A stretch of DNA of 64,000 nucleotides, from assembly GCA_963662315.1 (NCBI GenBank), contig OY759353.1, positions 3,808,001 to 3,872,000 of the forward strand, given 5' to 3'. Under the pieces are notes generated by a model. That model worked only from the letters and a program-made list of their open reading frames with translations. It was not told where the DNA came from and ran no database searches. The stretch is from Geopsychrobacteraceae bacterium. Lineage in GTDB: Bacteria > Desulfobacterota > Desulfuromonadia > Desulfuromonadales > Geopsychrobacteraceae. Each line of letters begins with the position of its first letter. Position 1 is the stretch's first letter. This document shows positions 44,810 through 57,615 of the stretch, piece by piece. Both the position numbers and the translations under genes were made by a program.

Positions 44810-45012
44810 ATCGGGTAGCCGGGGGTTTTGCTCCCCCAGCCCCCACACCACCCGGCATGCGGGTCCGCACCGGGCGGTTCGATGAAACTACCGGGCCGTA
44901 GCCGGGTAATGTCGCTTCACCCACAGGTCTTTGACAGAAACTAAACCCTGATCCTTCAGCACTGGTTAGTCATGCCGGAATGGGCCGCCAGCCGGCGGGA
45001 CATGGCCCACGC
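44810..45012 (-). mobile_element. 3' remnant of a group IIC intron (end of IEP, domains V and VI)
   Basis: Minus strand: GAACCGCCCGGTGCGGACCCGCATGCCGGGTGGTGTGGGGG (DV) ... CCCCCGGCTACCCGAT (DVI and 3' end); preceded by the frameshifted IEP tail GMTNQ-LKDQGLVSVKDLWVKRHYPATAR*. Confidence 0.85.
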
Positions 45013-45030: not shown

Positions 45031-45774
45031 GGAGTTCCGGGGACAGTATATAGATCTTTGACAAAGTCTTGTTTCCTGATAGTCTTTTTCTTATGGCAAG
45101 AATAGCACGAGTTATTGCACCGGGCTTGCCCCATCATGTAACGCAACGGGGCAACCGGCGGCAGACGACATTTTTTTGCGATGAGGATTTTCAGATTTAT
45201 ATCGATCTGATGGCTCATTGGTGTGCCAAGTATCATGTGGATATCTGGGCTTGGTGCCTCATGCCAAACCATGTTCATTTAATTGCGGTGCCAACAGATG
45301 AAGCCGGCCTGGCGCGTGCGATTGGTGAAGCGCATAGACGCTATACCCGACATATCAATTTCCGCCATGATTGGCGGGGTCATCTGTGGCAAGAACGTTT
45401 TGCTTCTTTCCCTATGGACGAAGCCTATCTGCTTGCCGCTGCGCGTTATATAGAAATGAACCCTGTCGCTGCAAACCTGGTCTCTGACCTTGGGCAGTAC
45501 CCCTGGAGTAGTGCGAAAGCGCACCTCAACGACCTGGATGATGGTCTGGTGAACCGCGCTCCACTATTGGATCTGGTTTCAGACTGGCAAAGTTTCCTGA
45601 AGTTAAGTAACGAAGAAGAACTGGAGATTTTGCATAAACATGAGAAAACAGGGCGACCACTTGGGAATTTGTCATTTGTTGAAAGTATCGAAGTTCTATT
45701 AGCACGGACATTGCGGCCTCTGCCACCAGGCCCTAAAAAGAATGATTAGTTCTATATACTGTCCCCGGAACTCC
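45031..45774 (+). mobile_element. RAYT (Y1 HUH transposase) element, copy 1, with 24-bp terminal inverted repeats
   Basis: GGAGTTCCGGGGACAGTATATAGA (45031-45054) and its exact reverse complement (45751-45774); no TSD. Confidence 0.85.
45093..45749 (+). CDS. REP-associated tyrosine transposase (Y1_Tnp), copy 1
   Basis: HHVTQRGNRRQ, CLMPNHVHL (HUH), RYIEMNPV (catalytic Tyr) and YPWSS motifs. Confidence 0.9.
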   Translation: MARIARVIAPGLPHHVTQRGNRRQTTFFCDEDFQIYIDLMAHWCAKYHVDIWAWCLMPNHVHLIAVPTDEAGLARAIGEAHRRYTRHINFRHDWRGHLWQERFASFPMDEAYLLAAARYIEMNPVAANLVSDLGQYPWSSAKAHLNDLDDGLVNRAPLLDLVSDWQSFLKLSNEEELEILHKHEKTGRPLGNLSFVESIEVLLARTLRPLPPGPKKND

Positions 45775-45777
45775 CCC

Positions 45778-45949
45778 CATGAGAAAACAGGGCGACCACT
45801 TGGGAATTTGTCATTTATTGAAAGTATCGAAGTTCTATTAGCACGGACATTGCGGCCTCTGCCACCAGGCCCTAAAAAGAATGATTAGTTCTATATACTG
45901 TCCCCGGAACTCCAGCTATATACTGTCCCCGGAACTCCCCCGGAACTCC
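45778..45949 (+). repeat. Stuttered duplications of the RAYT right end
   Basis: 45778-45913 repeats 45639-45774 (136 bp, 1 mismatch seen); further end copies at 45916-45938 and 45939-45949. Confidence 0.9.
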
Positions 45950-46058
45950 AGCCAATTTGATAGGCAGCCCCCTTCTCTGGGGTATATCGGTTCGCCCAAA
46001 CACCAAGTCCTCCGTCACTCTGGCCATGCGTAAATGATGGTTTAAGTTTGTTTGGAAC
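45950..46058 (-). pseudogene. Orphan toxin-tip fragment, possibly Tox-REase-5-like
   Basis: Frame beginning at GTTCCAAAC reads VPNKLKPSFTHGQSDGGLGVWANRYTPEKGAAYQIG and is cut by the RAYT end. Confidence 0.5.
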
Positions 46059-46090
46059 ATTTCTTTAGCTTAGAAATGTTCCAAACACAA

Positions 46091-46426
46091 TCAAACCTCT
46101 ACGAACTTATTCCCGCTATCAAAATGTTTAACCAATTCCTGTATTAGAAATTCGTAAACCGAATTTGATGCACTATCCGATGGCAAAAAATAGATTTTAG
46201 ATAAGTAATACCTTTTTCCTAAAGCATCATTAACCAGCTTCAAACCTGAAAGAACTTGGTCCAAAACCTGTGCAGAAGAAGTCCTCGCCTTCAAATCATT
46301 TTTAACATCCCATTCTACGACTTCTACAGCGGTTTCTTGTTCAGAAAAACTAACACCTAGAATGTTATCCTGAGAACCCGTCATCCGAGCAACTTTATAA
46401 ACGTTTCCATCTTTTACAAATTGCAT
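46091..46426 (-). CDS. Putative immunity protein for toxin 1
   Basis: 111 aa, low GC, TAATG overlap with the toxin 1 stop. Confidence 0.7.
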   Translation of the reverse strand: MQFVKDGNVYKVARMTGSQDNILGVSFSEQETAVEVVEWDVKNDLKARTSSAQVLDQVLSGLKLVNDALGKRYYLSKIYFLPSDSASNSVYEFLIQELVKHFDSGNKFVEV

Positions 46427-47475
46427 TATTCAACCCCCCAAGGAAAACCTCTCCAACGCCAATCAACTCTGTCATGAGCTTTGCTATAACCAGAATCATA
46501 TTTCAACTCATACCACCTTTCGGCAATTTCATGTTTCATCCATGTGATATCGGCGTCAGTATGTGTTCCGCTTTCTAAGCGCTTCCAAGCCTGAGCCTGC
46601 TCTATCGTACTATCAAATCTTCCTACCGTTGCCGGGATACCCTGATCCACATAACGATCCAGTAAATGCTCGTTATAGAAAACGTGATCTTTTACTTTTT
46701 GAATATTTCCAGGTTTGAAGCCTGTACTTGATGCAATTGCAGAAACATCTGAATCACTTGCCCTTATTGCATCATATAGATCATCTGCTGATGCCGTATA
46801 TCCTCCACCACCAGTTTGTTTTAGTGGTGAAGTGTTGTTTGCAATATAGCGACGTATCAGCGCTTGTTGTTCGCCACGCTCCAAACTGGAAATATCTGCT
46901 GGAATCATAATTGAATCAGCCTGATAACGCGAATACCAATTTGCAGCTGCCGCTTTTACTTGTTTATTCGTTTCCTCACCGGATTTCTTATCCGGCTTGG
47001 CCTGTTTTATTTCCTGTTTCTCAGTAGCTTTCAGACCCTGATTGTCCACAGTTTTGACAACATTCCTTGATAAAGATCTCTGCTGGCTGTGGGTTTGCGG
47101 GGCCATGATTTTACTATAAGCAGATGAGACTATTCCCTGCAGGTTTTCATATTGGTTTATTCCTGACAGGCTGGCGACCCAGCGGCCTTTTTGGGGATTG
47201 TTCGGGTAGTCAGGGTCCTGCTGCCAGTAGACGACCCCCAAGAAGGGGAGCTTCATAGAGTAGACGAGGCAGACTTCCATCTTGTCAATTTTTTTTAGCA
47301 GCTCATCAAGCCCCTGTTGATAATTGCGCCACTGGGCAGGAACGAATTCGTTTAGATTATGAATGCTGGTAAAACCGTCACAATAGGCGTCACGGACATC
47401 GTTTTTAGCGAAAAACGGATTGGAAATATACGGCAGGTCAGCAACCGTAATATCTCTGGCAGCAACAAGTCTCAT
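46426..47475 (-). CDS. Polymorphic toxin 1 (shared N-terminus, C-terminal HExxE...H-type domain)
   Basis: First about 135 aa nearly identical to the 49662 and 55642 ORFs; unique C-terminus KDHVF..H..RFD..AWKRL..KHEIAE..GYSKAH. Confidence 0.75.
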   Translation of the reverse strand: MRLVAARDITVADLPYISNPFFAKNDVRDAYCDGFTSIHNLNEFVPAQWRNYQQGLDELLKKIDKMEVCLVYSMKLPFLGVVYWQQDPDYPNNPQKGRWVASLSGINQYENLQGIVSSAYSKIMAPQTHSQQRSLSRNVVKTVDNQGLKATEKQEIKQAKPDKKSGEETNKQVKAAAANWYSRYQADSIMIPADISSLERGEQQALIRRYIANNTSPLKQTGGGGYTASADDLYDAIRASDSDVSAIASSTGFKPGNIQKVKDHVFYNEHLLDRYVDQGIPATVGRFDSTIEQAQAWKRLESGTHTDADITWMKHEIAERWYELKYDSGYSKAHDRVDWRWRGFPWGVE

Positions 47476-47987
47476 CGGTATCCCCCCTCAAGGATAAAAT
47501 AAGTTGCTATAAGAAATAACTATCTGGAAAGTTTTAATGAGAGGAGAGGATAGCGTTTTTTTAGCTTGAGTCAAGATGTTTAGCAGGAATTTTAAGGGCG
47601 GTCTTTTCAACTCGGGATCAATTTTCAGAAGTTATCTTAGATAAAATCACATCAAAACCGCCGGGTCCCGGCCCGGCAGCCGGATTCATTTTTTCCAGCG
47701 ATGAAAAAACGAATCAAAAAAATCTTTTAAGGTCAAACACACTGACGATAGTCGATTCGGTCTACACTTTATCGTTGCTACCAGCAGTGAACAGCCCGCC
47801 CAACGATGCTATTGCATCCATGGGCAGAACCGAATTAAAGTGAATACATAAAAATGCCAACGGCATTTTTGCGGTTCTGGCCATCAGGCGCGTATTGCGC
47901 TTACTATTTGTCGCCCGCTTGGGACAAATAGTAAGGCGTTGTGCGGGGCGCAACACCGCGACCGTGCTTGTTTCATTTCAATCATAG
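47476..47987. repeat. Upstream non-coding region of the toxin unit, copy 1 (truncated, with an internal deletion)
   Basis: Near-identical to 50799-51633 and 56782-57615; contains hairpin repeats and a minus-strand TTGACT-16-TATCCT promoter-like sequence at 47547-47574. Confidence 0.9.
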
Positions 47988-48731
47988 GGAGTTCCGGGGA
48001 CAGTATATAGATCTTTGACAAAGACTTGTTGCCTGATAGTCTTTTTCTTATGGCGAGAATAGCACGAGTTATTGCACCGGGCTTGCCCCATCATGTAACG
48101 CAACGAGGCAACCGGCGGCAGACGACATTTTTTTGCGATGAGGATTTTCAGATTTATATCGATCTGATGGCTCATTGGTGTGCCAAGTATCATGTGGATA
48201 TCTGGGCTTGGTGCCTCATGCCAAACCATGTTCATTTAATTGCGGTGCCAACAGATGAAGCCGGCCTGGCGCGTGCGATTGGTGAAGCGCATAGACGCTA
48301 TACCCGACATATCAATTTCCGCCATGATTGGCGGGGTCATCTGTGGCAAGAACGTTTTGCTTCTTTCCCTATGGACGAAGCCTATCTGCTTGCCGCTGCG
48401 CGTTATATAGAAATGAACCCTGTCGCTGCAAACCTGGTCTCTGACCCTGGGCAGTACCCCTGGAGTAGTGCGAAAGCGCACCTCAACGACCTGGATGATG
48501 GTCTGGTGAACCGCGCTCCACTATTGGATCTGGTTTCAGACTGGCAAAGTTTCCTAAAGTTAATTAACGAAGAAGAACTGGAGATTCTGCATAAACATGA
48601 GAAAACAGGGCGACCACTTGGGAATTTGTCATTTGTTGAAAGTATCGAAGTTCTATTAGCACGGACATTGCGGCCTCTGCCACCAAGCCCTAAAAAGAAT
48701 GATTAGTTCTATATACTGTCCCCGGAACTCC
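47988..48731 (+). mobile_element. RAYT element, copy 2, with 24-bp terminal inverted repeats
   Basis: TIRs at 47988-48011 and 48708-48731. Confidence 0.85.
48050..48706 (+). CDS. REP-associated tyrosine transposase, copy 2
   Basis: Near-identical to copy 1; intact HUH and Tyr motifs. Confidence 0.9.
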   Translation: MARIARVIAPGLPHHVTQRGNRRQTTFFCDEDFQIYIDLMAHWCAKYHVDIWAWCLMPNHVHLIAVPTDEAGLARAIGEAHRRYTRHINFRHDWRGHLWQERFASFPMDEAYLLAAARYIEMNPVAANLVSDPGQYPWSSAKAHLNDLDDGLVNRAPLLDLVSDWQSFLKLINEEELEILHKHEKTGRPLGNLSFVESIEVLLARTLRPLPPSPKKND

Positions 48732-49101
48732 CGGTCAGATAGAGCGGTCGTCGAAAGGCAACGATCTCCATCGCCGCTTTGCAGCGCGGGCAGCGGAACA
48801 CCGGTCGTGATCGCACGGGAATCGGTTCGAGCATGACGCGCAGAACGTACTGTACCAAACGCAGAGTTCTTTTGGCGTTACCGTGCAGAAAACCATAATC
48901 CCGCACCCGGCGAAACCCTTTTGGGAGAACATGCTGGAGGACCAGCCAGAGAAAGTCTTCCCCCTTCAGGGTGAGGGTCTGCTCTTGCTGGGTCTCGCTG
49001 TCGCGATAGCGGAAAGTCACCTTTCCTTTTTGGCAGGAGATGATGTTGTTCTCGGCAATCACACCGCGATAGAGGTAGCGCGACAGATATTTCAGGGCCG
49101 T
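48732..49101 (-). pseudogene. IS91-family (Y2) transposase C-terminal fragment
   Basis: ALKYLSRYLYRG, VTFRYRD, FLWLVLQHVLPKGFRRVRDYGFL and CPRC motifs; bounded on both sides by RAYT end motifs. Confidence 0.8.
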
Positions 49102-49116
49102 GGAGTTCCGGGGACA

Positions 49117-49241
49117 TCCATTTCTTTATTAGTAATCCCTTTTTCCTGCTTGAGGGCCATCAAGGATTCAAACTCTGCGCTTGCCAATGACCTTAGCTGA
49201 TCTGCTTGCTGAGAGTTAACGAGTAGCCTACTGTTTGGAAC
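49117..49241 (-). pseudogene. Orphan toxin-tip fragment (same tip as 55012-55220)
   Basis: VPNSRLLVNSQQADQLRSLASAEFESLMALKQEKGITNKEM, cut by GGAGTTCCGGGGACA at 49102-49116. Confidence 0.65.
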
Positions 49242-49244
49242 AAC

Positions 49245-49652
49245 CTACAATTCGATAATCACCTCAGAGTTAAATGATTCAGGCATTTGAAGAAATCTTC
49301 TCCATGCAGTAACTACGGCCTTAAATTCAGCAAGTGAAAATCTTCCTTCTGGCTGCCCAACCCATTCATCATTTACATTTATATCAACTTGAATACCATT
49401 TTGGGAAATTAAGACATCCACGTCATTTCCTTCTATATCAGACTCACTTTCGTGCCCTTCCTCTATCATTTCAACTTCAGCCAATACTCGATCACAATCA
49501 TCAATAGACTGAGCAATGCAACTTAAAATATTGGCGAGATATCGCTGATATCTCGCCACATCCTGACCATCTATAAACTCCTGGCACTGATGATAAACTT
49601 GTCCCAACACAGGATGGTTTCCACCATCAGCATAATAAAGCTTTAACTTCAC
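49245..49652 (-). CDS. Putative immunity protein for the EndoU toxin
   Basis: 135 aa, acidic, immediately downstream of toxin 2, GAGGTG RBS. Confidence 0.72.
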   Translation of the reverse strand: MKLKLYYADGGNHPVLGQVYHQCQEFIDGQDVARYQRYLANILSCIAQSIDDCDRVLAEVEMIEEGHESESDIEGNDVDVLISQNGIQVDINVNDEWVGQPEGRFSLAEFKAVVTAWRRFLQMPESFNSEVIIEL

Positions 49653-49661
49653 ATTGCACCT

Positions 49662-50798
49662 CTAAGGTTTCTTTGGCGTTTGATATACCGGATAAACAGT
49701 TGTTTTTGGTGAAATCCAACCCTCGACTTTGACACCGGAAGGCGTAACTGAAATCCACTTATCACCTTGAACAATCTTATTCGGGTCATTCCAAGCTGCA
49801 TCAACTTCTGTTTTAACACGGATTTCATCCCAACCTTTGGGAAACATCGTATTAGTAGAATTATTGCTAGTCTTAGTTATCCACTGTCCCGGATTCGCCG
49901 GATCGGGAACTTGAATCGTAGCTTTATATACATCTGCAACATCAGGCACCGATTCAGTTCTGGGGACAATTCGGACATCACCGTAGAGCAAAGTATGACC
50001 GCCAGTCGGTTTACCTTTTTTCGTGTAGTCAGCTTTCAATACGTGATCAAAATCTACTGGTGATTGCTGAACGTACTTGTTTGGAACAACTATCTCACCA
50101 GCAGATGATACTACAGGCCCCATCGAAAGTCCAAGCCCAGCTCTCAAACCACCAGCGGTCAACGCTGTGCCAACAACGTCATTTGTCTCAGCAGGCGTCT
50201 GAGAAAGTCGCATGCTGTAGGTACTTGCAAAGTCAGTTTGCTTAAATGCAGTAGCCTCTTGCAATACTTGATCGCCTCTTTCGGTCTCCTCAGGCCTTGC
50301 CATCACCTGCTTCTGGCCCAAAAAATTGCGTCTGCCGCCTTTGACACTGTTCTCAAACCCTTGGTTGACCACCGCTTTGGCTGTGCTGCTTTGCAAAGAT
50401 CTCTGCTGGCTGTGGGTTTGCGGTACCATGATTTTACTGTAAGCAGATGAGACTATTCCCTGCAGGTTTTCATATTGGTTTATTCCTGACAGGCTGGCAA
50501 CCCAGCGGCCTTTTTGGGGATTGTTCGGGTAGTCAGGGGCCTGCTGCCAGTAGACGACCCCCAAGAAGGGGAGCTTCATAGAGTAGACGAGGCAGACTTC
50601 CATCTTGTCAATTTTTTTTAGCAGCTCATCAAGCCCCTGTTGATAATGGCGCCACTGGACAGGAACGAATTCGTTTAGATTATGAATGCTGGTAAAACCG
50701 TCACAATAGGCGTCACGGACATCGTTTTTAGCGAAAAACGGATTGGAAATATACGGCAGGTCAGTAACCGTAATATCTCTGGCAGCAACAAGTCTCAT
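49662..50798 (-). CDS. Polymorphic toxin 2 with a C-terminal bacterial EndoU nuclease domain
   Basis: Shared N-terminus; after VVPN: FDHVL...TGGH...K...NTMFPKGW...TVYPV. Confidence 0.8.
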   Translation of the reverse strand: MRLVAARDITVTDLPYISNPFFAKNDVRDAYCDGFTSIHNLNEFVPVQWRHYQQGLDELLKKIDKMEVCLVYSMKLPFLGVVYWQQAPDYPNNPQKGRWVASLSGINQYENLQGIVSSAYSKIMVPQTHSQQRSLQSSTAKAVVNQGFENSVKGGRRNFLGQKQVMARPEETERGDQVLQEATAFKQTDFASTYSMRLSQTPAETNDVVGTALTAGGLRAGLGLSMGPVVSSAGEIVVPNKYVQQSPVDFDHVLKADYTKKGKPTGGHTLLYGDVRIVPRTESVPDVADVYKATIQVPDPANPGQWITKTSNNSTNTMFPKGWDEIRVKTEVDAAWNDPNKIVQGDKWISVTPSGVKVEGWISPKTTVYPVYQTPKKP

Positions 50799-51633
50799 CG
50801 GTATCCCCCCTCAAGGATAAAATAAGTTGCTATAAGAAATAACTATCTGGAAAGTTTTAATGAGGGGAGAGGATAGCGTTTTTTTAGATTCAGTCAAGAT
50901 ATTTAGCAGGAGTTTTAAGGGCGGTCTTTTCGACTCGGGATCAATTTTCAGAAGTTATCTTAGATAAAATTACATCAAAACCGCCGGGTCCCGGCCCGGC
51001 AGCCGGATTCATTTTTTCCAGCGATAAAAAAACGAATCAAAAAAATCTTTTAAGGTCAAACACACTGACGATAATTGATTCGGTCAACGTCTAATCGTTG
51101 CTACCCGTAGTGAACAGACCGCCCAACGATGCTGCGCATCCATGGGCAGAACCGAATTAAAGTGAGTACATAAAAATGCCAACGGCATTTTTGCGGTTCT
51201 GGCCATCAGGCGCGTATTGCGCCGTCGGCCGGCTGGTTAGATGCTGGATGTTCCTTTGGAGAGACGAAGCCCGAGTACGGACCCTTTAAAGAAGGGCGTT
51301 TTGTGCTTACTATTTGTCGCCCGCCTGGGACAAATAGTAAGGCGTCGTGCGGGGCGCAACACCGCGACCTTGCTTGTTTCATTTCAATCATAAAAGACAA
51401 CACCACCGGGTCCCGGCCCGGCAGCCGGATTCATTTTTTCCAGCGATGAAAAAACGAATCAAAAAAAATCTTTAGGTCAAACACACTGACGACAATTGAT
51501 TTTCGGTCTACGCTTATTCGTTGTTACGAGCAGAGAACAGAACGTCTGACGATGCTGTCGTATCAATAGACAGTGGAAGCTCATGGTCCTAATCCATAAA
51601 TTAACCAAGACTCACCGTTTTGGAGTTGTTGTG
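50799..51633. repeat. Upstream non-coding region of the toxin unit, copy 2
   Basis: Near-identical to copies 1 and 3; two CCGGGTCCCGGCCCGG hairpin modules at 50984 and 51406. Confidence 0.9.
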
Positions 51634-52318
51634 GGAGTTCCGGGGACAGTATATAGATCTTTGACAAAGACTTGTTGCCTGCTAGTCTTTTTCTTATGGC
51701 GAGAATAGCACGAGTTATTGCACCGGGCTTGCCCCATCATGTAACGCAACGGGGCAACCGGCGGCAGACGACATTTTTTTGCGATGAGGATTTTCAGATT
51801 TATATCGATCTGATGGCTCATTGGTGTGCCAAGTATCATGTGGATATCTGGGCTTGGTGCCTCATGCCAAACCATGTTCATTTAATTGCGGTGCCAACAG
51901 ATGAAGCCGGCCTGGCGCGTGCGATTGGTGAAGCGCATAGACGCTATACCCGACATATCAATTTCCGCCATGATTGGCGGGGTCATCTGTGGCAAGAACG
52001 TTTTGCTTCTTTCCCTATGGATGAAGCCCATCTCCTTGCCGCTGCGCGTTATATAGAAATGAACCCTGTCGCTGCAAACCTGGTCTCTGACCCTGGGCAG
52101 TACCCCTGGAGTAGTGCGAAAGCGCACCTCAATGACCTGGATGATGGTCTGGAGAACCGCGCTCCACTATTGGATCTGGTTTCAGACTGGCAAAGTTTCC
52201 TAAAGTTAAGTAACGAAGAAGAACTGGAGATTTTGCATAAACATGAGAAAACAGGGCGACCACTTGGGAATTTGTCTTTTGTTGAAAGTATCGAAGTTCT
52301 ATTAGCACGGACATTGCG

Positions 52319-54944
52319 GAGGGTGTAAAATCCTTTGTGTAAATAGACCCAGTCGGTTACAACCCGTAACCACTGGAGGAACCACAGATGTCTATACCTG
52401 ACGACCTGCTTGATAGCCTGATGAAGGACTACAAAAACCCTGAAGATCTCATTGGGGAAACCGGGCTGCTGAAACAACTGACAAAAAAACTTTTGGAGCG
52501 GGCGATGCAAACCGAGATGACCGATCACCTCGGCTATGAAAAAAACGCTCCGACTACTAATAAATCCGGCAATACTCGTAACGGAAGTTACCAGAAAAAG
52601 ATCAAGGGTGAGTTTGGAGAACTTGATATTTCTGTTCCCCGAGACCGGGATGCCAGCTTTGAACCAGCTATCCTCCCCAAAGGGCAAAGCCGATTTTCTG
52701 GCTTTGATGATAAAATCATCGCTTTGTATGCTCGCGGCATGACCACCCGCGACATCCAGGCACACTTGGAAGAAATCTATGGGGTTGAGATTTCACCGAC
52801 GCTGGTTTCTCAGGTAACCAAGGCTGTTCAGGAGGAGGTTGTTCTGTGGCAGAATCGCCCCCTTGATGATGTTTGGCCAATCGTCTACCTTGATGCTCTT
52901 CGCGTCAAGGTTCGGCAGGATAACCGAGTCATAAATAAAGCTGTCTATCTTGCTGTTGGTGTCAATCTTGACGGCGTGAAAGAGGTTCTAGGCATGTGGA
53001 CTGCCGAGAATGAAGGAGCCAAATTCTGGCTGCAGGTCGTCACCGAATTGAAGAACCGTGGGGTCAAGGATATCTTCATTGCCTGCGTCGACGGACTGAA
53101 GGGATTTCCTGAAGCGATAGAGGCCGTCTTCCCGAAAACGCAGGTTCAGCTCTGCATCGTCCATATGGTTCGGCACAGCCTGAACTACGTCTCTTGGAAA
53201 CAACGCAAGGAAGTCGCTGCCGACTTAAAAACAATCTATTCAGCGGCGACACTGGAGGAGGCTGAGTACCACCTGGAACTCTTCGGAGATAAATGGGATT
53301 CCAGCCATCCTACAATCAGCAAATCATGGCGAAACAACTGGGAGCGGATTACTCCGCTGTTCTCTTATCCGCCAGAGATCCGAAAGGCAATTTACACGAC
53401 CAACGCCATTGAGTCGGTAAATATGTCGTTGAGGAAGGTAATGAAGAACCGAGGTTCGTTCCCCAATGACGAGGCCATGTTTAAGCTGATGTATCTGGCT
53501 TTACAGAATATTGCCAAGAAATGGACAATGCCGATCCGTAACTGGCGATCGGGTAGTGTTCAAAATTCTGTGTCAATTCGTTACTATCATCACAACCAAA
53601 GGAATGACACATGACTCAACCCAAAATCACCTTCGATCTAGACGCTGCTCTTGCGGCCTTGCGTGAAGGCAAGGATCTCAACGGCAAAGACGGGATTCTC
53701 ACTCCGCTGATCAAGCAGCTTACAGAAGCCGCCATACAGGCCGAACTTGATGAGCACTTGGCCAATGAGGAAGGCCCGAATCGCAAAAACGGTAAAACGT
53801 CAAAAACAATCAAGTCCCTCTCGGACAGTTTTATTCTTGATACTCCGCGTGATCGCGCCAATACCTTTGAGCCCCAGCTGGTTAAAAAAAATCAGACTCA
53901 GCTTACCGATGAGTTGGAGCGGAAAATCATTGCCCTGTTTGCTCTTGGTACGAGCTATCAGGATATTCGGCAACATGTCTCCGACATGTATGGAATTTCC
54001 GTTTCCAACGGCACAATTAACGCCGTAACCGACAAGCTCTTGCCGGACCTGCAAGCCTGGCGAGAGCGCGATCTTGAAGCGATTTATCCGATCCTCTGGC
54101 TGGACGCTATCCACTACAAGGTCAAGGAAAACGGCCGTTATATCGGTAAGGCGATCTACACCATCCTGGGCCTGAACATCGAAGGCAAGAAAGAGCTTCT
54201 CGGACTCTATCTCTCCGACAATGAAGGGGCACACCACTGGTTAAGCGTTCTTACCGATCTGCATAACCGCGGGGTACAGGACATTTTGATCGCATGTGTC
54301 GATGGCCTCAAGGGTTTCCCCGAAGCTATCGAAAGCATCTATCCGAATACTGAAATCCAGCACTGCGTCATCCACCAGATTCGCAATTCGATCAAGTATG
54401 TAGCCTCAAAGAATCAAAAGGCCTTCATGGCTGATCTGAAGTGTGTCTACAAGGCAGCGACCCTCAACGCAGCGGAGCTGGCTTTGGACGACTTGGAATC
54501 GAAATGGGGTGAGAAGTATCCCATGGTCATTAAGTCTTGGCGCAGTAAATGGCCGACCTTATCCAACTATTTCAAGTACCCCGATTACGTCCGGACAGCC
54601 ATCTATACCACCAATGCTGTGGAGGCGGTTCACCGACAGTTCCGCAAACTGACCAAGACAAAGGGTGGCTTCGCCAATGAAAACAGCTTGCTGAAGCTGC
54701 TTTACGCTGGCATACTCAAGGCCTCCGAGCGTTGGACACATCCGATTCAGAACTGGAATCTGACGCTGGCTCAGCTGACCATCCATTTTCCGGGTCGGCT
54801 GGAAAAACATCTCAGTCTATGAGCCTGACACAGAATCCTGAACACCCTCGGCGATCGGCACTGAATCAGTTTTCGATTATATTTGAAGGGCGGATGCCAC
54901 TGCTCTAACCGACGGGGCATTTACACAATCTGCTTTACACCCTC
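52319..54944 (+). mobile_element. IS256-family element (outer); transposase 52388..54908 disrupted near its C-terminus
   Basis: IRL GAGGGTGTAAAATCCTTTGTGTAAAT and matching IRR ending at 54944; 8-bp TSD ACATTGCG at 52311 and 54945; VPRDR, CVDGLKG, QLCIVH and TTNAIE motifs. Confidence 0.93.
53552..54849 (+). mobile_element. IS256-family element (inner) with intact transposase 53611..54822
   Basis: IRL GGTAGTGTTCAAAATTCTGTGTCA and IRR TGACACAGAATCCTGAACACCCTC; 8-bp TSD GGCGATCG at 53544 and 54850; TPRDR, CVDGLKG and TTNAVE motifs. Confidence 0.93.
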
Positions 54945-55011
54945 ACATTGCGGCCTCTGCCACCAGGCCCTAAAAAGAATGATTAGTTCTATATACTGTC
55001 CCCGGAACTCC

Positions 55012-55220
55012 TCCGGCATAAAACCTTGTTGATTGTTGCGGTGAATCTGCGAGATTTTTCCTGTTTTCAGATCCATTGCAACGGAAAGTGCAGGCCCCAT
55101 TTCTTTATTAGTAATCCCTTTTGCCTGCTTGAGGGCCATCAAGGATTCAAACTCTGCGCTTGCCAATGACCTTAGCTGATCTGCTTGCTGAGAGTTAACG
55201 AGTAGCCTACTGTTTGGAAC
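55012..55220 (-). pseudogene. Orphan toxin-tip fragment, possibly the start of a YwqJ-like deaminase
   Basis: VPNSRLL...KEMGPALSVAMDLKTGKISQIHRNNQQGFMP, cut by the RAYT right end; no proper start or RBS of its own. Confidence 0.6.
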
Positions 55221-55222
55221 AA

Positions 55223-55642
55223 TCAATTATTTACATTCAAACACGATGGAATTTTTCCGTTTGTCTTTAAAAAGCTTAAACATATTTCGCGAACAGTCTC
55301 TATATCATCAATTAAGCTCCGATCATTCTGAAATTGTCCCAATATAGCGATATTTTTAGCATCTTTATCTGGGTTATATAATCGGTAAATTAATCGATCT
55401 CCTTCAGAGTCAACTTCGCTACATTCCACATAACATTTCCCTGCATCACAACTTACGTTAAGACTGCATTCGCCAGGCTCATCTTCCTCTCCTTTCCAAA
55501 GGGATAGAAAGCCATTATTTGAGTACACCGAATCTAACCGTGCAAAAACTTCTCTTTCAGTTGGATTTTTCAGCATTGTACTTTGGTTCCGTTCTCCAGA
55601 GGGTGAATAAACAAACCCTCCTATGCTCAGTTGTTCGATCAT
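55223..55642 (-). CDS. Putative immunity protein for the deaminase toxin (Imm1-like)
   Basis: 139 aa, TAATG overlap with toxin 3; acidic, C-terminal D.E.V.E....F...G pattern. Confidence 0.72.
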   Translation of the reverse strand: MIEQLSIGGFVYSPSGERNQSTMLKNPTEREVFARLDSVYSNNGFLSLWKGEEDEPGECSLNVSCDAGKCYVECSEVDSEGDRLIYRLYNPDKDAKNIAILGQFQNDRSLIDDIETVREICLSFLKTNGKIPSCLNVNN

Positions 55643-56781
55643 TATTCAGCCTTTGACTTAATAATTTTAAACTTGCTCATACCTGGCTCCCAATAATAAG
55701 TTTTCGGGAGGCCCGTTTTATTACTTAAAGAACGAACAGTTAAACTAGTGTATTCGTCTTTAATTGCAGCTTGCACAAGATCTTTTTGGCAAAAACCACA
55801 AACATCAAGACCATCTACATCCATTACAACATTTGAACCTTTCCCAACACCGGAATTTCGAATTTGCTGAGCCACTCCGATTTCAGCATGAGCATTTGCC
55901 ATATTGCTATTTGGATACCCACCTTCTCGTAGAGGTTTAGCCTCAACGAATTCTGAAATAAACGTTTTCTGATTCGCATCCGCTCCCAATCTAAGAGTTG
56001 GATTGATATCTTCAAATAGTTGATCGCCTACTTTTGCTCGAGCTCTAACAGATAATTCAGTGTTTGGAACCACTCTTCCACCAGCAGATGATACTACAGT
56101 CCCCTTCGAAAGTCCAAGCCCAGTTCTCAAACCACCAGCGGTCAACGCTGTGCCAACAACGTCATTTGTCTCAGCAGGCGTCTGAGAAAGTCGCATGCTG
56201 TAGGTACTTGCAAAGTCAGTTTGCTTAAAAGCAGTAGCCTCTTGCAATACGTGATCGCCTCTTTCGGCCTCCTCAGGCCTTGCCATCACCTGCTTCTGGC
56301 CCAAAAAATTGCGTCTGCCGCCTTCGACACTGTTCTCAAACCCTTGGTTGACCACCGCTTTGGCTGTGCTGCTTTGCAAAGAGGCCTGCTGGCTGTGGGT
56401 TTGCGGTACCATGATTTTACTGTAAGCAGATGAGACTATTCCCTGCAGGTTTGCATATTGGTTTATTCCTGATAGGCTGGCGACCCAGCGGCCTTTTTGA
56501 GAATTGTTCGGGTAGTCAGGGTCCTGCTGCCAGTAGACGACCCCCAAGAAGGGGAGCTTCATAGAGTAGACGAGGCAGACTTCCATCTTGTCAATTTTTT
56601 TTAGCAGCTCATCAAGCCCCTGTTGATAATTGCGCCACTGGGCAGGAACGAATTCGTTTAGATTATGAATGCTGGTAAAACCGTCACAATAGGCGTCACG
56701 GACATCGTTTTTAGCGAAAAACGGATTGGAAATATACGGCAGGTCAGCAACCGTAATATCTCTGGCAGCAACAAGTCTCAT
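55642..56781 (-). CDS. Polymorphic toxin 3 with a C-terminal nucleic-acid deaminase-like domain
   Basis: Shared N-terminus; after VVPN: PNSNMANAHAEIG...VCGFC (HxE...CxxC zinc motif). Confidence 0.8.
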   Translation of the reverse strand: MRLVAARDITVADLPYISNPFFAKNDVRDAYCDGFTSIHNLNEFVPAQWRNYQQGLDELLKKIDKMEVCLVYSMKLPFLGVVYWQQDPDYPNNSQKGRWVASLSGINQYANLQGIVSSAYSKIMVPQTHSQQASLQSSTAKAVVNQGFENSVEGGRRNFLGQKQVMARPEEAERGDHVLQEATAFKQTDFASTYSMRLSQTPAETNDVVGTALTAGGLRTGLGLSKGTVVSSAGGRVVPNTELSVRARAKVGDQLFEDINPTLRLGADANQKTFISEFVEAKPLREGGYPNSNMANAHAEIGVAQQIRNSGVGKGSNVVMDVDGLDVCGFCQKDLVQAAIKDEYTSLTVRSLSNKTGLPKTYYWEPGMSKFKIIKSKAE

Positions 56782-57615
56782 CGGTATCCCCCCTCAAGGA
56801 TAAAATAAGTTGCTATAAGAAATAACTATCTGGAAAGTTTTAATGAGAGGAGAGGATAGCGTTTTTTTAGCTTGAGTCAAGATGTTTAGCAGGAATTTTA
56901 AGGGCGGTCTTTTCAACTCGGGATCAATTTTCAGAAGTTATCTTAGATAAAATCACATCAAAATCGCCGGGTCCCGGCCCGGCAGCCGGATTCATTTTTT
57001 CCAGCGATAAAAAAACGAATCAAAAAAATCTTTTAAGGTCAAACACACTGACGATAGTCGATTCGGTCTACACTTTATCGTTGCTACCAGCAGTGAACAG
57101 CCCGCCCAACGATGCTATTGCATCCATGGGCAGAACCGAATTAAAGTGAATACATAAAAATGCCAACGGCATTTTTGCGGTTCTGGCCATCAGGCGCGTA
57201 TTGCGCCGTCGGCCGGCTGGTTAGATGCTGGAGGTTTCTTTGGAGAGATGAAGCCCGAGTACGGACCCTTTAAAAAAGGGCGTTTTGTGCTTACTATTTG
57301 TCGCCCGCCTGGGACAAATAGTAAGGCGTTGTGCGGGGCGCAACACCGTGACCGTGCTTGTTTCATTTCAATCATAAAAGACAACACCACCGGGTCCCGG
57401 CCCGGCAGCCGGATTCATTTTTTTCCAGCGCTGAAAAAACGAATCAAAAAAATCTTTAAGGTCAAACACACTGACGATAATTGATTCGGTTTACGTTCTA
57501 TCGTTGCTATCAGCAGTGAACAGACCGCCCAACGATGCTGTCGTATCAATAGACAGTGGAAGCTCATGGCCCTACTCCATAAATTAACCAAGATTCACCG
57601 TTTTGGAGTTGTTGG
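56782..57615. repeat. Upstream non-coding region of the toxin unit, copy 3 (most complete)
   Basis: Hairpin modules at 56967 and 57390; 13-bp perfect stem at 57290-57325. Confidence 0.9.

Follow-up and report, generated by a model that had tools for sequence, protein, structure and literature searches.

A ten-nucleotide word, fixed as DNA, bounds the tip and immunity modules of a putative new family of small polymorphic toxins

Introduction

How polymorphic toxin loci gain, stack and reload their modules of toxin tip and immunity gene is an old open question for contact-dependent inhibition (CDI) systems, Rhs and MafB toxins, and effectors of type VI secretion systems (T6SS). The question is raised again by a locus in the genome of a Geopsychrobacteraceae bacterium, within a stretch of 64,000 nucleotides of contig OY759353.1 (the window), where three toxin units stand in tandem on the minus strand, each laid out as a promoter-like site, a gene encoding 349-379 residues, a small gene, an orphan fragment of a toxin tip, mobile DNA and a convergent RAYT-like gene. 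A word of ten nucleotides, which in the sense of the genes reads GTTCCAAACA and encodes V-P-N (and which reads TGTTTGGAAC on the plus strand), recurs inside toxin genes and behind immunity genes. In a preliminary description of this DNA the word was taken as the core of a site-specific recombination site in an integron-like array of toxin cassettes. The questions taken up here are what the word bounds, whether it is held constant as DNA or as peptide, and by what route the modules that it bounds might be exchanged.

Results

Module boundaries at the junction word

The five plus-strand copies on which the preliminary description was based were all found in place, starting at window positions 46049, 49232, 50078, 55211 and 56061, and a sixth, inverted copy that it did not contain lies at 46078-46087 (Table 1). 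Six copies compare with 0.19 expected in the window, and none of 100 shuffles reached six. Across all 4.71 Mb of the genome the exact copies number 17, with ~9.5 expected, 8 of them at toxin loci and 9 elsewhere, the latter being the background level; with one mismatch allowed, 273 matches are found against 278 expected, 12 of them at toxin loci. Because the genome-wide counts lie near expectation and 8 exact copies fall at toxin loci, the word is concentrated there without being generally enriched in the genome. The count against expectation, which had been named as a check, thus gives a strong excess for the window and no more than background for the copies away from the toxins.

The in-gene copies of toxins 2 and 3 lie at the boundary between the constant and the variable part, and the post-immunity copies start 3, 2 and 32 nucleotides after the stop codons of immunity genes 2, 3 and 1, respectively. 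As had been claimed, the V-P-N frame stays open after each copy in the window, for 141-142 codons in the genes and for 49, 99 and 55 codons in the orphans, all three of which are cut short by mobile DNA. The copies are not fully independent of one another: the orphans after immunity genes 2 and 3 are one sequence (125 of 126 nucleotides identical), and the in-gene copies occupy paralogous positions.

Comparison of units 2 and 3 places the boundary precisely. Their constant parts are 95% identical and their orphans differ at a single nucleotide; everything between the two motif copies differs, and the homology of toxin 3 to toxin 2 ends at the motif. The same arrangement recurs beyond the window. 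The genome contains 8 paralogous toxin genes (338-397 residues), 5 of which carry GTTCCARAC at nucleotide 711 after a common 110-residue linker that runs to ..SSAG(G/E)(R/I)VVP(N/D); the other 3 diverge at about nucleotides 395-510 and lack the VVP(N/D) joint. In 4 of the 5 VVPN/VVPD genes a second motif follows 2-19 nucleotides past the immunity stop and opens a frame without a start codon, and in the fifth the orphan lies 2 kb downstream, behind mobile DNA. The homology between orphan and gene is limited to 11-13 nucleotides, which bears out the earlier statement that longer homology arms are absent; correct, too, was the statement that a crossover between two motif copies would fuse the following tip in frame. 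Tip and immunity modules are bounded exactly by the motif.

Six orphan tips (5 distinct sequences), all without a promoter, begin at the motif. All 5 distinct orphans are cut by mobile DNA 23-131 codons past it, the insertion points lying 23, 37, 43, 70, 73 and 131 codons past the motif, and the orphan behind immunity gene 3 is preceded by an in-frame stop 3 codons upstream. As their sequences stand, the orphans of this genome are relics.

Toxin 1 has no in-gene motif, yet a motif stands after its immunity gene. A variant junction, ATTGCAAACA (I-A-N, 46836-46845), had been proposed for this gene. The word is present, but it carries 2 mismatches and does not exceed chance: matches with up to 3 mismatches number 501 against 544 expected, and the likeness of toxin 1 to its nearest paralogue has already ended ~130 nucleotides before ATTGCAAACA. 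It was rejected as a chance match. The perfect hairpin formed by the motif and its inverted copy also stands behind toxin 1, the sole window toxin without an in-gene motif; it may have arisen by templated inverted duplication or as an intermediate of recombination.

Arrays in a second genome

When one genome per species was searched with the orphan tip from the locus of the gene at 349208, a metagenome-assembled gammaproteobacterium (G072), absent from the 233 genomes of the order to which this organism belongs, was found to contain the same word in longer series. Its contig C17 holds 16 copies of GTTCCARACA on one strand, in two arrays of 8, with a spacing of 591-1132 nucleotides within an array. 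Each array opens with a copy placed within a long frame (195 and 161 codons are open upstream), one of these lead frames having a TNT-domain tip at its end. IS66 elements have truncated both lead genes at the 5' end, and a gene for a 2522-residue Rhs/LysM protein lies upstream; because of this truncation the arrays may at present be silent. The other 14 copies open frames of 129-184 codons, each following a long open reading frame (ORF), the last frame being reduced to 67 codons by an IS110-family element. Where one module is partly duplicated, the shared homology starts exactly at the motif.

The packing is tight. The orphan modules of G072 begin 0-25 nucleotides past the previous immunity stop, and in both genomes together 19 of 20 orphan junctions follow the stop by -1 to 32 nucleotides, 13 of these 19 within 4 nucleotides, with 4 stop codons overlapping the first G of the motif. 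One module is common to both genomes, at ~70% nucleotide identity. The N-terminal domain of the toxins described above was not found in G072 by alignment search, so the same word appears to serve different carriers. Eleven single motif matches elsewhere in G072 look like background.

A wider probe, TARGTWGTTCCARACA, requires the 6-nucleotide consensus upstream of the motif and would miss many arrays. It matched 3 of 233 genomes of the order (G000 included), the same three of 342 in a sample of the class, and none of 60 relatives of G072; a reversed-pattern control gave similar numbers of single matches. The matches in G011 and G013 open frames of only 27-48 codons and were taken as chance. The observation thus extends beyond the genome in which it was made, and is stronger than the preliminary description knew.

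Constraint on DNA rather than on peptide alone

Whether the word is held as DNA or as peptide was examined on the sense strands of all array regions in both genomes, where every VP[ND] tripeptide was collected irrespective of its codons. All 27 module starts (11 here and 16 in G072) read GTT CCA RAC, as against none of the 13 other VP[ND] tripeptides, two of which lie within the tip of toxin 2 itself. The genome's codon shares are 0.39 for GTT, 0.19 for CCA and 0.45 for AAC. In 26 of the 27 the tenth motif base is A, despite a following residue that can be K, N, S or T, and among 19 distinct orphans 9 of the 10 motif positions are invariant. Variation is found in the expressed genes, where N and D alternate (A or G at position 7) and position 10 has once changed from A to C. 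In the orphans a bias extends to the six bases that precede the motif (T15 A10 A8 G15 T16 T13 of 19), in part from the immunity stop codons that lie there. The contrast of 27/27 with 0/13 shows that the constraint acts on DNA and not on the peptide alone; fixation of the codons across homologues had been named beforehand as a check, and it holds at the module starts of two genomes.

Integron features and recombinases

The features that would make the locus integron-like were then sought separately. The integron core site is GTTRRRY; the motif reads GTTCCAA and shares only GTT with it. When DNA of 134 nucleotides ending at the motif was folded for 11 sites, a hairpin was obtained at one (behind immunity gene 1, z = -5.96); the other 10 gave z values of -0.92 to +0.56 and no attC-like fold, and the junction spacers are only -1 to 32 nucleotides long. 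A true integron integrase is encoded at 2835995-2836939, ~1 Mb away from the closest toxin locus; it is the sole match to TIGR02249 above the cut-off of 265 bits and scores 481. Beside it lie many small ORFs on the same strand; a crude regular-expression scan for attC-like sites there gave nothing convincing, and such a scan cannot show the integron to be empty. The surroundings of all toxin loci out to 100 kb contain no tyrosine recombinase (PF00589), and neither does the 82-kb G072 contig with its 16-copy arrays; the XerD-family recombinase at the array head that is a feature of rAID-1 (recombinase-associated acquired interbacterial defence) is absent from both array settings. With one folded site in 11, an integrase ~1 Mb away and no tyrosine recombinase within 100 kb, the proposal of an integron-like cassette array is not upheld.

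Rearranged joints were sought in Logan contigs from 4 public runs (2 samples of 1 study), a material that drops rare variants. The contigs contain the reference arrangement only, without alternative junctions, rare excision products being invisible in contigs; the excised circles and alternative junctions anticipated earlier were thus not seen. A joint of 49243 to 50078, which at first sight skips 834 nucleotides, was rejected as a deletion: the 943-nucleotide contig that contains it shows 7 differences in 75 nucleotides on the constant side, its loose ends match unit 3, and it is the paralogous module of tip 3 and immunity gene 3. A single uncovered bin in run X6 carries no information. Of the proposed site-specific recombination core, then, the exact module boundary, the fixation as DNA and the arrays of 8 in G072 speak in its favour; the integron specifics are not supported.

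Toxins, immunity genes and N-terminal domain

Polymorphic toxins are defined by a constant N-terminus, a variable toxic C-terminus, an adjacent immunity gene and orphan cassettes (PMC4287609, in the excerpt used). The genes described here combine a conserved N-terminus with variable tips, tips of known toxin families, and stand-alone cassettes. The 8 paralogues lie at genome positions 349208, 3855475, 3858798, 3864781, 3991904, 4206673, 4210935 and 4213098; their residues 1-130 are 94-100% identical and their tips unrelated. Five of the 8 tips match Pfam toxin domains (EndoU, Deam_C, RNAse_A_bac, Colicin-DNase/WHH), with one strong match to RNAse_A_bac and one weak (E 5e-4, below cut-off), and 3 have no match. 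The tip of toxin 3 matches Deam_C (PF24241, E 3e-36, residues 242-372) and that of toxin 2 EndoU_bacteria (E 3e-12, residues 249-371). A small ORF follows each of the 8 toxin genes; 3 of these putative immunity genes match families seen as immunity proteins (CdiI_2, DUF6911, DUF6985). None of the 8 toxins matches the PT-VENN or haemagglutinin-repeat families. An RBS-like GAGGGGGG, that is, a possible ribosome-binding site, precedes the toxin ATG. Taken together, these genes most likely form a new family of small polymorphic antibacterial toxins with tip and immunity modules.

The first 240 residues of toxin 3 are 94-95% identical to its paralogues. Over the 5' 390 nucleotides the 8 paralogues share 93-100% identity in every 30-nucleotide window, at loci up to 3.9 Mb apart, which suggests ongoing gene conversion of the N-terminal domain. 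Past nucleotide 390 they are mosaic, with breaks away from the motif at about nucleotides 395, 460-510 and 500; toxin 1 departs from the VVPN class at about nucleotide 395 and from its nearest paralogue at about nucleotide 500. For the 0.7-kb constant region an identity of 90-99% is given among the 8 paralogues, three of which diverge before its end.

No Pfam or NCBIfam model matched the N-terminal 125 residues. When 5.8 billion clusters were searched by word index, nothing came back beyond the paralogues of this genome and a single ENA protein with a tip of CHAP plus PG_binding. Searching 1.84 billion representatives with a profile brought in 14 more, distant proteins (E 1e-6 to 6e-4) that have the same N-terminus and other tips, among them WHH nuclease and PT-TG. 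Relatives in the representative set come to only about 15. Relatives of the domain were found in none of 71 genomes of the family, nor in searches of genome contigs and metagenome contigs. The AlphaFold2 model of the domain has a mean pLDDT (predicted local distance difference test) of 50.4, too poor for a fold search, and a search of the ESM Atlas gave no usable match. The region appears to be a new trafficking domain of polymorphic toxins.

The genome encodes one T6SS (VipB/TssC 416 bits, Hcp 126 bits) and 5 VgrG genes (Phage_GPD matches). The orphan behind the gene at 349208 is 59-76% identical to C-termini fused to VgrG, PAAR and LysM; in a VgrG-fused relative (P0023) the alignment begins exactly at VPDK, and the joint reads ..SVRVVPDKNFD. 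Two other VgrG relatives that were examined (L027 and L028) have other C-terminal extensions, without VVP[ND]. We infer delivery by this system, the toxins being probably T6SS cargo. None of the 8 toxin loci has a match to VgrG, TssC or Hcp as its neighbour. Outside this genome the closest relative of tip 3, a deaminase toxin (P0035), is 83% identical and lacks VVPN, its homology to tip 3 starting 1-2 residues past the motif; the V-V-P-N joint therefore seems to belong to the boundary between carrier and tip and not to the fold of the tip.

Mobile elements and repeats at the loci

The coordinates of the units and of their neighbours are collected in Table 1. RAYT-like proteins score 75.9 (the gene at 45069-45749), 61.8 and 76.5 bits against NCBIfam REP_Tyr_transpos (NF047646, cut-off 80) and lie above the cut-off of Pfam Y1_Tnp. 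RAYT-like genes of four types, with 35-45% identity between types, stand next to every one of the four toxin regions and account for 6 of the 12 Y1_Tnp matches in the genome; three types are convergent, right behind a truncated orphan, and one is divergent and upstream. The toxin genes are ~95% identical but the Y1 genes are old, so that the link between the two is not one of co-duplication. The ends of the RAYT-like elements contain GAGTTCCGGGG repeats. A RAYT-like transposase as the recombinase shared by both genomes was ruled out, since no Y1 gene is present on the array contig of G072.

IS110-family transposase genes adjoin arrays in both genomes. One of four copies here (4203075-4204549, L025) lacks its last ~10 nucleotides and is joined to an orphan motif (..GGATGT followed directly by TCCAAACA), and the second array of G072 is ended by an IS110-family element that interrupts a module after ..ACTTTGG, a point from which the intact copy runs on as TCCAAAG. 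With other flanks elsewhere, the IS110-family copies look like ordinary multi-copy insertion sequences.

Several further observations concern the surroundings of the toxin genes. A hairpin-rich repeat of ~423 nucleotides, often in tandem, lies upstream of every toxin gene (56960-57560, 50976-51573 and 47653-47986 in the window); it matched no Rfam family and has dozens of copies in the genome (e.g. at 285-287, 1037-1046, 2847-2854 and 4242-4243 kb), including the integron cassette region. The octamer GCTGGTGG, which we take to be the E. coli Chi sequence, is present in 380 copies against ~130 expected, takes first place among 168 octamers of equal composition and is on the leading strand in 67% of cases; it lies ~75 nucleotides upstream of the junction in the VVPN/VVPD toxins (window ~56136-56143 and 50153-50160), and a second copy lies ~10 nucleotides upstream of the junction in toxin 3. 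Past the first RAYT-like gene there is a match to group II intron domains V/VI (44810-44879, minus strand; Rfam RF00029, 43.8 bits against a gathering threshold of 40). The translated start of an ORF behind the toxin locus at 3991904 appears to resemble a group II intron reverse transcriptase in its C-terminal (maturase) part.

Table 1. Features of the three toxin units and related loci (window coordinates unless otherwise marked)
Feature	Position	Strand	Details
Toxin 3	55642..56781	-	379 residues; constant N-terminal domain, linker to ..GGRVVPN, cytidine-deaminase-like tip; ORF
Immunity gene 3	55223..55642	-	139 residues; Pfam DUF6911, E 1e-13
Toxin 2	49662..50798	-	378 residues; same constant part as toxin 3, EndoU-type RNase tip
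Immunity gene 2	49245..49652	-	135 residues; ORF
Toxin 1	46426..47475	-	349 residues; same N-terminal domain, other linker, without VVPN junction
Immunity gene 1	46091..46426	-	111 residues; ORF; without family match
Promoter-like site before toxin 3	56853..56880	-	TTGACT-16-TATCCT; consensus match only
Same promoter-like site before toxins 2 and 1	50870-50897; 47547-47574	-	consensus match only
In-gene junction motif, toxin 3	56061..56070	-	GTTCCAAACA (V-P-N); nucleotide 711, frame 0
In-gene junction motif, toxin 2	50078..50087	-	GTT GTT CCA AAC A; nucleotide 711, frame 0
Post-immunity motif after immunity gene 3	55211..55220	-	opens orphan tip VPNSRLL..
Post-immunity motif after immunity gene 2	49232..49241	-	inside TAG GTT GTTCCAAACA
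Perfect 16-bp hairpin, motif and inverted copy	46049..46087	.	TGTTTGGAACATTTCT / AGAAATGTTCCAAACA, 7-nucleotide loop; distal arm opens orphan VPNKLKPS..
Orphan tip fragment after immunity gene 3	55015..55220	-	~70 codons, without start codon; cut by RAYT-like element end (54945-55014)
Orphan tip after immunity gene 2	49118..49241	-	VPNSRLL..; cut by IS91-family fragment
Orphan tip fragment after immunity gene 1	45914..46058	-	~37 unique codons; cut by repeated RAYT-like element ends
RAYT-like Y1 (HUH) transposase gene	45069..45749	+	convergent with toxin unit; Pfam Y1_Tnp
Further RAYT-like copies	48026-48706; 51672-52328		97-99% identical
Other RAYT-like genes	genome 351218-352195; 4208686-4209603; 3991001-3991663		
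Two IS256-family (Mutator) transposase genes	52388..54822	+	between unit 3 orphan and its RAYT-like gene; Transposase_mut E 4e-123, 9e-92
IS91-family Y2_Tnp fragment	48709-49062		in debris behind unit 2 orphan
Two motif-bounded toxin/immunity arrays	G072:C17:11606-28754		L070, L071

Discussion

The reading preferred here, which is given about an even chance of being right, is that general recombination, anchored in the 0.7-kb constant part and finished in the short junction, exchanges the modules. The motif would be the DNA form of the V-P-(N/D) joint that closes the constant carrier part of the toxin family, and a module would consist of the motif, a toxin tip (~130-180 codons) and an immunity gene, ending up to 32 nucleotides before the next motif. 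Modules would be stacked head to tail behind an expressed gene, only the first having a promoter, a start codon and a carrier, and they would be loaded, stacked or lost through the cell's general recombination, with one crossover in the long constant region and the other in the junction of 11-16 nucleotides, the only remaining shared sequence. The route could be recombination of the homology-facilitated or short-homology kind, or else tandem gene copies could undergo unequal exchange; a dedicated recombinase would be unneeded. It is proposed that silent orphans keep every letter of the junction because the expressed position is closed to any module that has lost it. This route, and this selective reason for the fixation of the word, we infer. 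The mosaic structure of the VVPN/VVPD paralogues fits frequent homologous exchange within the constant part, and mosaic breaks away from the motif are not expected from a single-site enzyme.

Several points weigh against exchange by general recombination. A length of 10-13 bp is far below that required for efficient RecA-dependent exchange, so that the events would be rare; despite such rarity, 19 silent orphans show no substitution at 9 of the 10 motif positions, while the one module common to both genomes has drifted to the ~70% nucleotide identity given above. The packing of the junctions is too regular for random illegitimate joints, and the upstream bias of the orphans concerns six bases that are not common to the expressed genes. 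The IS110-family copy truncated exactly at the left edge of the motif hints at preferred breakage. Moreover, donors are presumed to carry a post-immunity motif already, which leaves the origin of the first joint unaccounted for, and unrelated left partners and the use of one word on different carriers are poorly explained by rare short-homology events.

The letter-perfect motif, tight packing, upstream bias, unrelated left partners and multiple carriers together keep alive a dedicated, unlinked system, in which the ten-nucleotide word, or the 16-nucleotide TARGTW-GTTCCARACA, would be the crossover site of a recombinase encoded elsewhere, and circular or linear modules of motif, tip and immunity gene would enter and leave at the in-gene copy in the manner of integron cassettes, yet at a simple site that is unfolded and lies inside a reading frame. 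Such a system is considered tentative and on the unlikely side. It would account for a word that is held in silent orphans of two genomes of different orders, for a tenth base that is almost always A whatever residue follows, for stop codons that overlap the motif by 1 nucleotide at 4 junctions and for arrays of up to 8 copies. To the left of the motif stand the 3' ends of 19 immunity genes and one truncated insertion sequence (IS), and the carriers are of three kinds (the new N-terminal domain, VgrG, and in G072 the IS66-truncated genes by the Rhs/LysM protein); IS110-family (DEDD) transposase genes, too, adjoin arrays in both genomes. Yet no recombinase is linked in cis in either genome, IntI being ~1 Mb away, the RAYT-like genes adjoin all four toxin regions here but are missing from the G072 array contig, and the IS110 copies resemble ordinary insertion sequences. 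The core is not flanked by conserved inverted arms, 10 of 11 sites do not fold, the paralogues break away from the motif as well, and 16 direct repeats of an efficient site would be unstable, yet the 14 orphans of G072 are intact (save for the last frame). The lack of an alternative joint in the contigs of 4 runs is a weak point on the same side, as contigs hide rare forms. The fullest form of the idea, in which TARGTW-GTTCCARACA is the attachment site of an unlinked recombination system that brings in-frame cassettes into several unrelated carriers in different orders, an 'in-frame integron' without linked integrase or folded sites, is regarded as quite unlikely.

Two further explanations fit the data less well. 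According to one, V-V-P-(N/D) is a structural or processing joint of the protein, like VENN or DPxGL, and the orphans are decaying leftovers of former displacements that keep their original codons, with no role for the DNA today. The truncation of all 5 distinct orphans here by mobile DNA, so that they could not yield working toxins, agrees with this, as do the recurrence of the joint peptide in a VgrG-fused toxin and the N/D variation and single change at position 10 in expressed genes. The silent orphans, however, are free of selection on the peptide, yet none of the 19 shows a synonymous change; all 13 internal VP[ND] tripeptides are written in other codons, the G072 orphans are intact apart from the last and have their immunity genes, and the foreign relative of tip 3 does without the peptide. 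A protein-level relic is accordingly held improbable. The word might otherwise be a footprint of RAYT-like, IS110- or IS91-family elements that cut or target sequences containing GTTC or GTTCC, and IS91-family elements do target GTTC/CTTG. Such elements cut every orphan here, half of the genome's Y1_Tnp matches lie at the four toxin regions, an IS110 copy ends at the motif, and GAGTTCCGGGG repeats stand in the RAYT-like element ends. Against a footprint, the array contig of G072 has no Y1 gene and its IS66 and IS110 copies lie at the array ends, the 14 internal junctions being free of them; expressed genes have the motif in frame and translate it, and the insertion points within orphans differ. 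This explanation is thought very improbable.

Exchange by general recombination at a short in-frame joint can be set beside known systems. In shufflons and invertases (R64 Rci/sfx, Gin/Cin) a short in-gene site joins alternative C-terminal segments in frame; the sites there are inverted, a linked recombinase switches them reversibly, and they come without immunity genes, whereas the copies here are direct save for the hairpin. Alternative C-terminal cassettes of Rhs proteins were reportedly described by Koskiniemi et al. in 2014.

The closest precedent, in the excerpts of the cited papers on which this comparison is based, is given by the VENN modules of CDI, with a constant carrier, a variable tip plus immunity gene, and stacked promoterless orphans (PMC3150448). 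Some CDI orphans share only the VENN-coding sequence with cdiA, modules run precisely from VENN to VENN, and recombination between VENN-coding sequences, perhaps after tandem duplication, has been proposed (Poole et al., 2011; PMC3150448); the tandem triplication in the window, with different modules, parallels that proposal. Unlike in CDI, the carrier here, with 240 residues and a new N-terminal domain, is no filamentous protein of two-partner secretion, the joint is V-V-P-N/D without a PT-VENN domain, the word is found on at least two carrier types as DNA and on a third (VgrG) as peptide, and fixation at the DNA level was tested against internal codon controls. MafB loci have silent cassettes without start codons, each followed by an immunity gene, whose loading by recombination was deduced from genome comparison (Jamet et al., 2015; PMC4287609). 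The silent, start-less cassettes here, each with its immunity gene, resemble those of MafB and Rhs; they differ in that MafB and Rhs cassettes usually keep longer conserved stretches or none, and that the junctions DWVKN (MafB, in the same excerpt) and DPxGL (Rhs) are unrelated.

In T6SS arrays of Vibrio cholerae, new pairs are added beside a conserved 5' region, for which homology-facilitated illegitimate recombination has been proposed; the likeness to integrons was noted there, with no integrase known in the passages drawn on (Kirchberger et al., 2017; PMC5361080). Those arrays differ in that they shed the old effector and accumulate immunity genes only, and the same passages describe no fixed junction word. 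The AID-1 immunity arrays of Bacteroidales are called integron-like and have a XerD-family recombinase (bioRxiv 10.1101/471110, in the excerpt used). Integrons and AID-1 arrays share with the present loci compact promoterless cassettes in one orientation, a single point of expression and a short repeat at the junctions (bioRxiv 10.1101/471110); unlike them, the loci here have no adjacent integrase or XerD-family gene and no folded attC-like site, and unlike in integrons the junction lies within a reading frame, so that insertion yields a protein fusion and not a further member of an operon. New here are the toxin family, its N-terminal domain and the DNA-fixed junction word; recombination between junction-coding sequences is already published for VENN (PMC3150448, as excerpted).

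The loci described here offer a clean case for the study of module exchange, with a small carrier, a ten-nucleotide word fixed against internal controls, arrays of 8, and occurrence in different orders and on different carriers. Explanations at the level of the protein, of homology and of an enzyme can be tested directly in this system. The motif itself is a simple sequence probe for silent toxin reservoirs, and the conserved region ahead of the tips would define a new N-terminal trafficking domain of antibacterial toxins.

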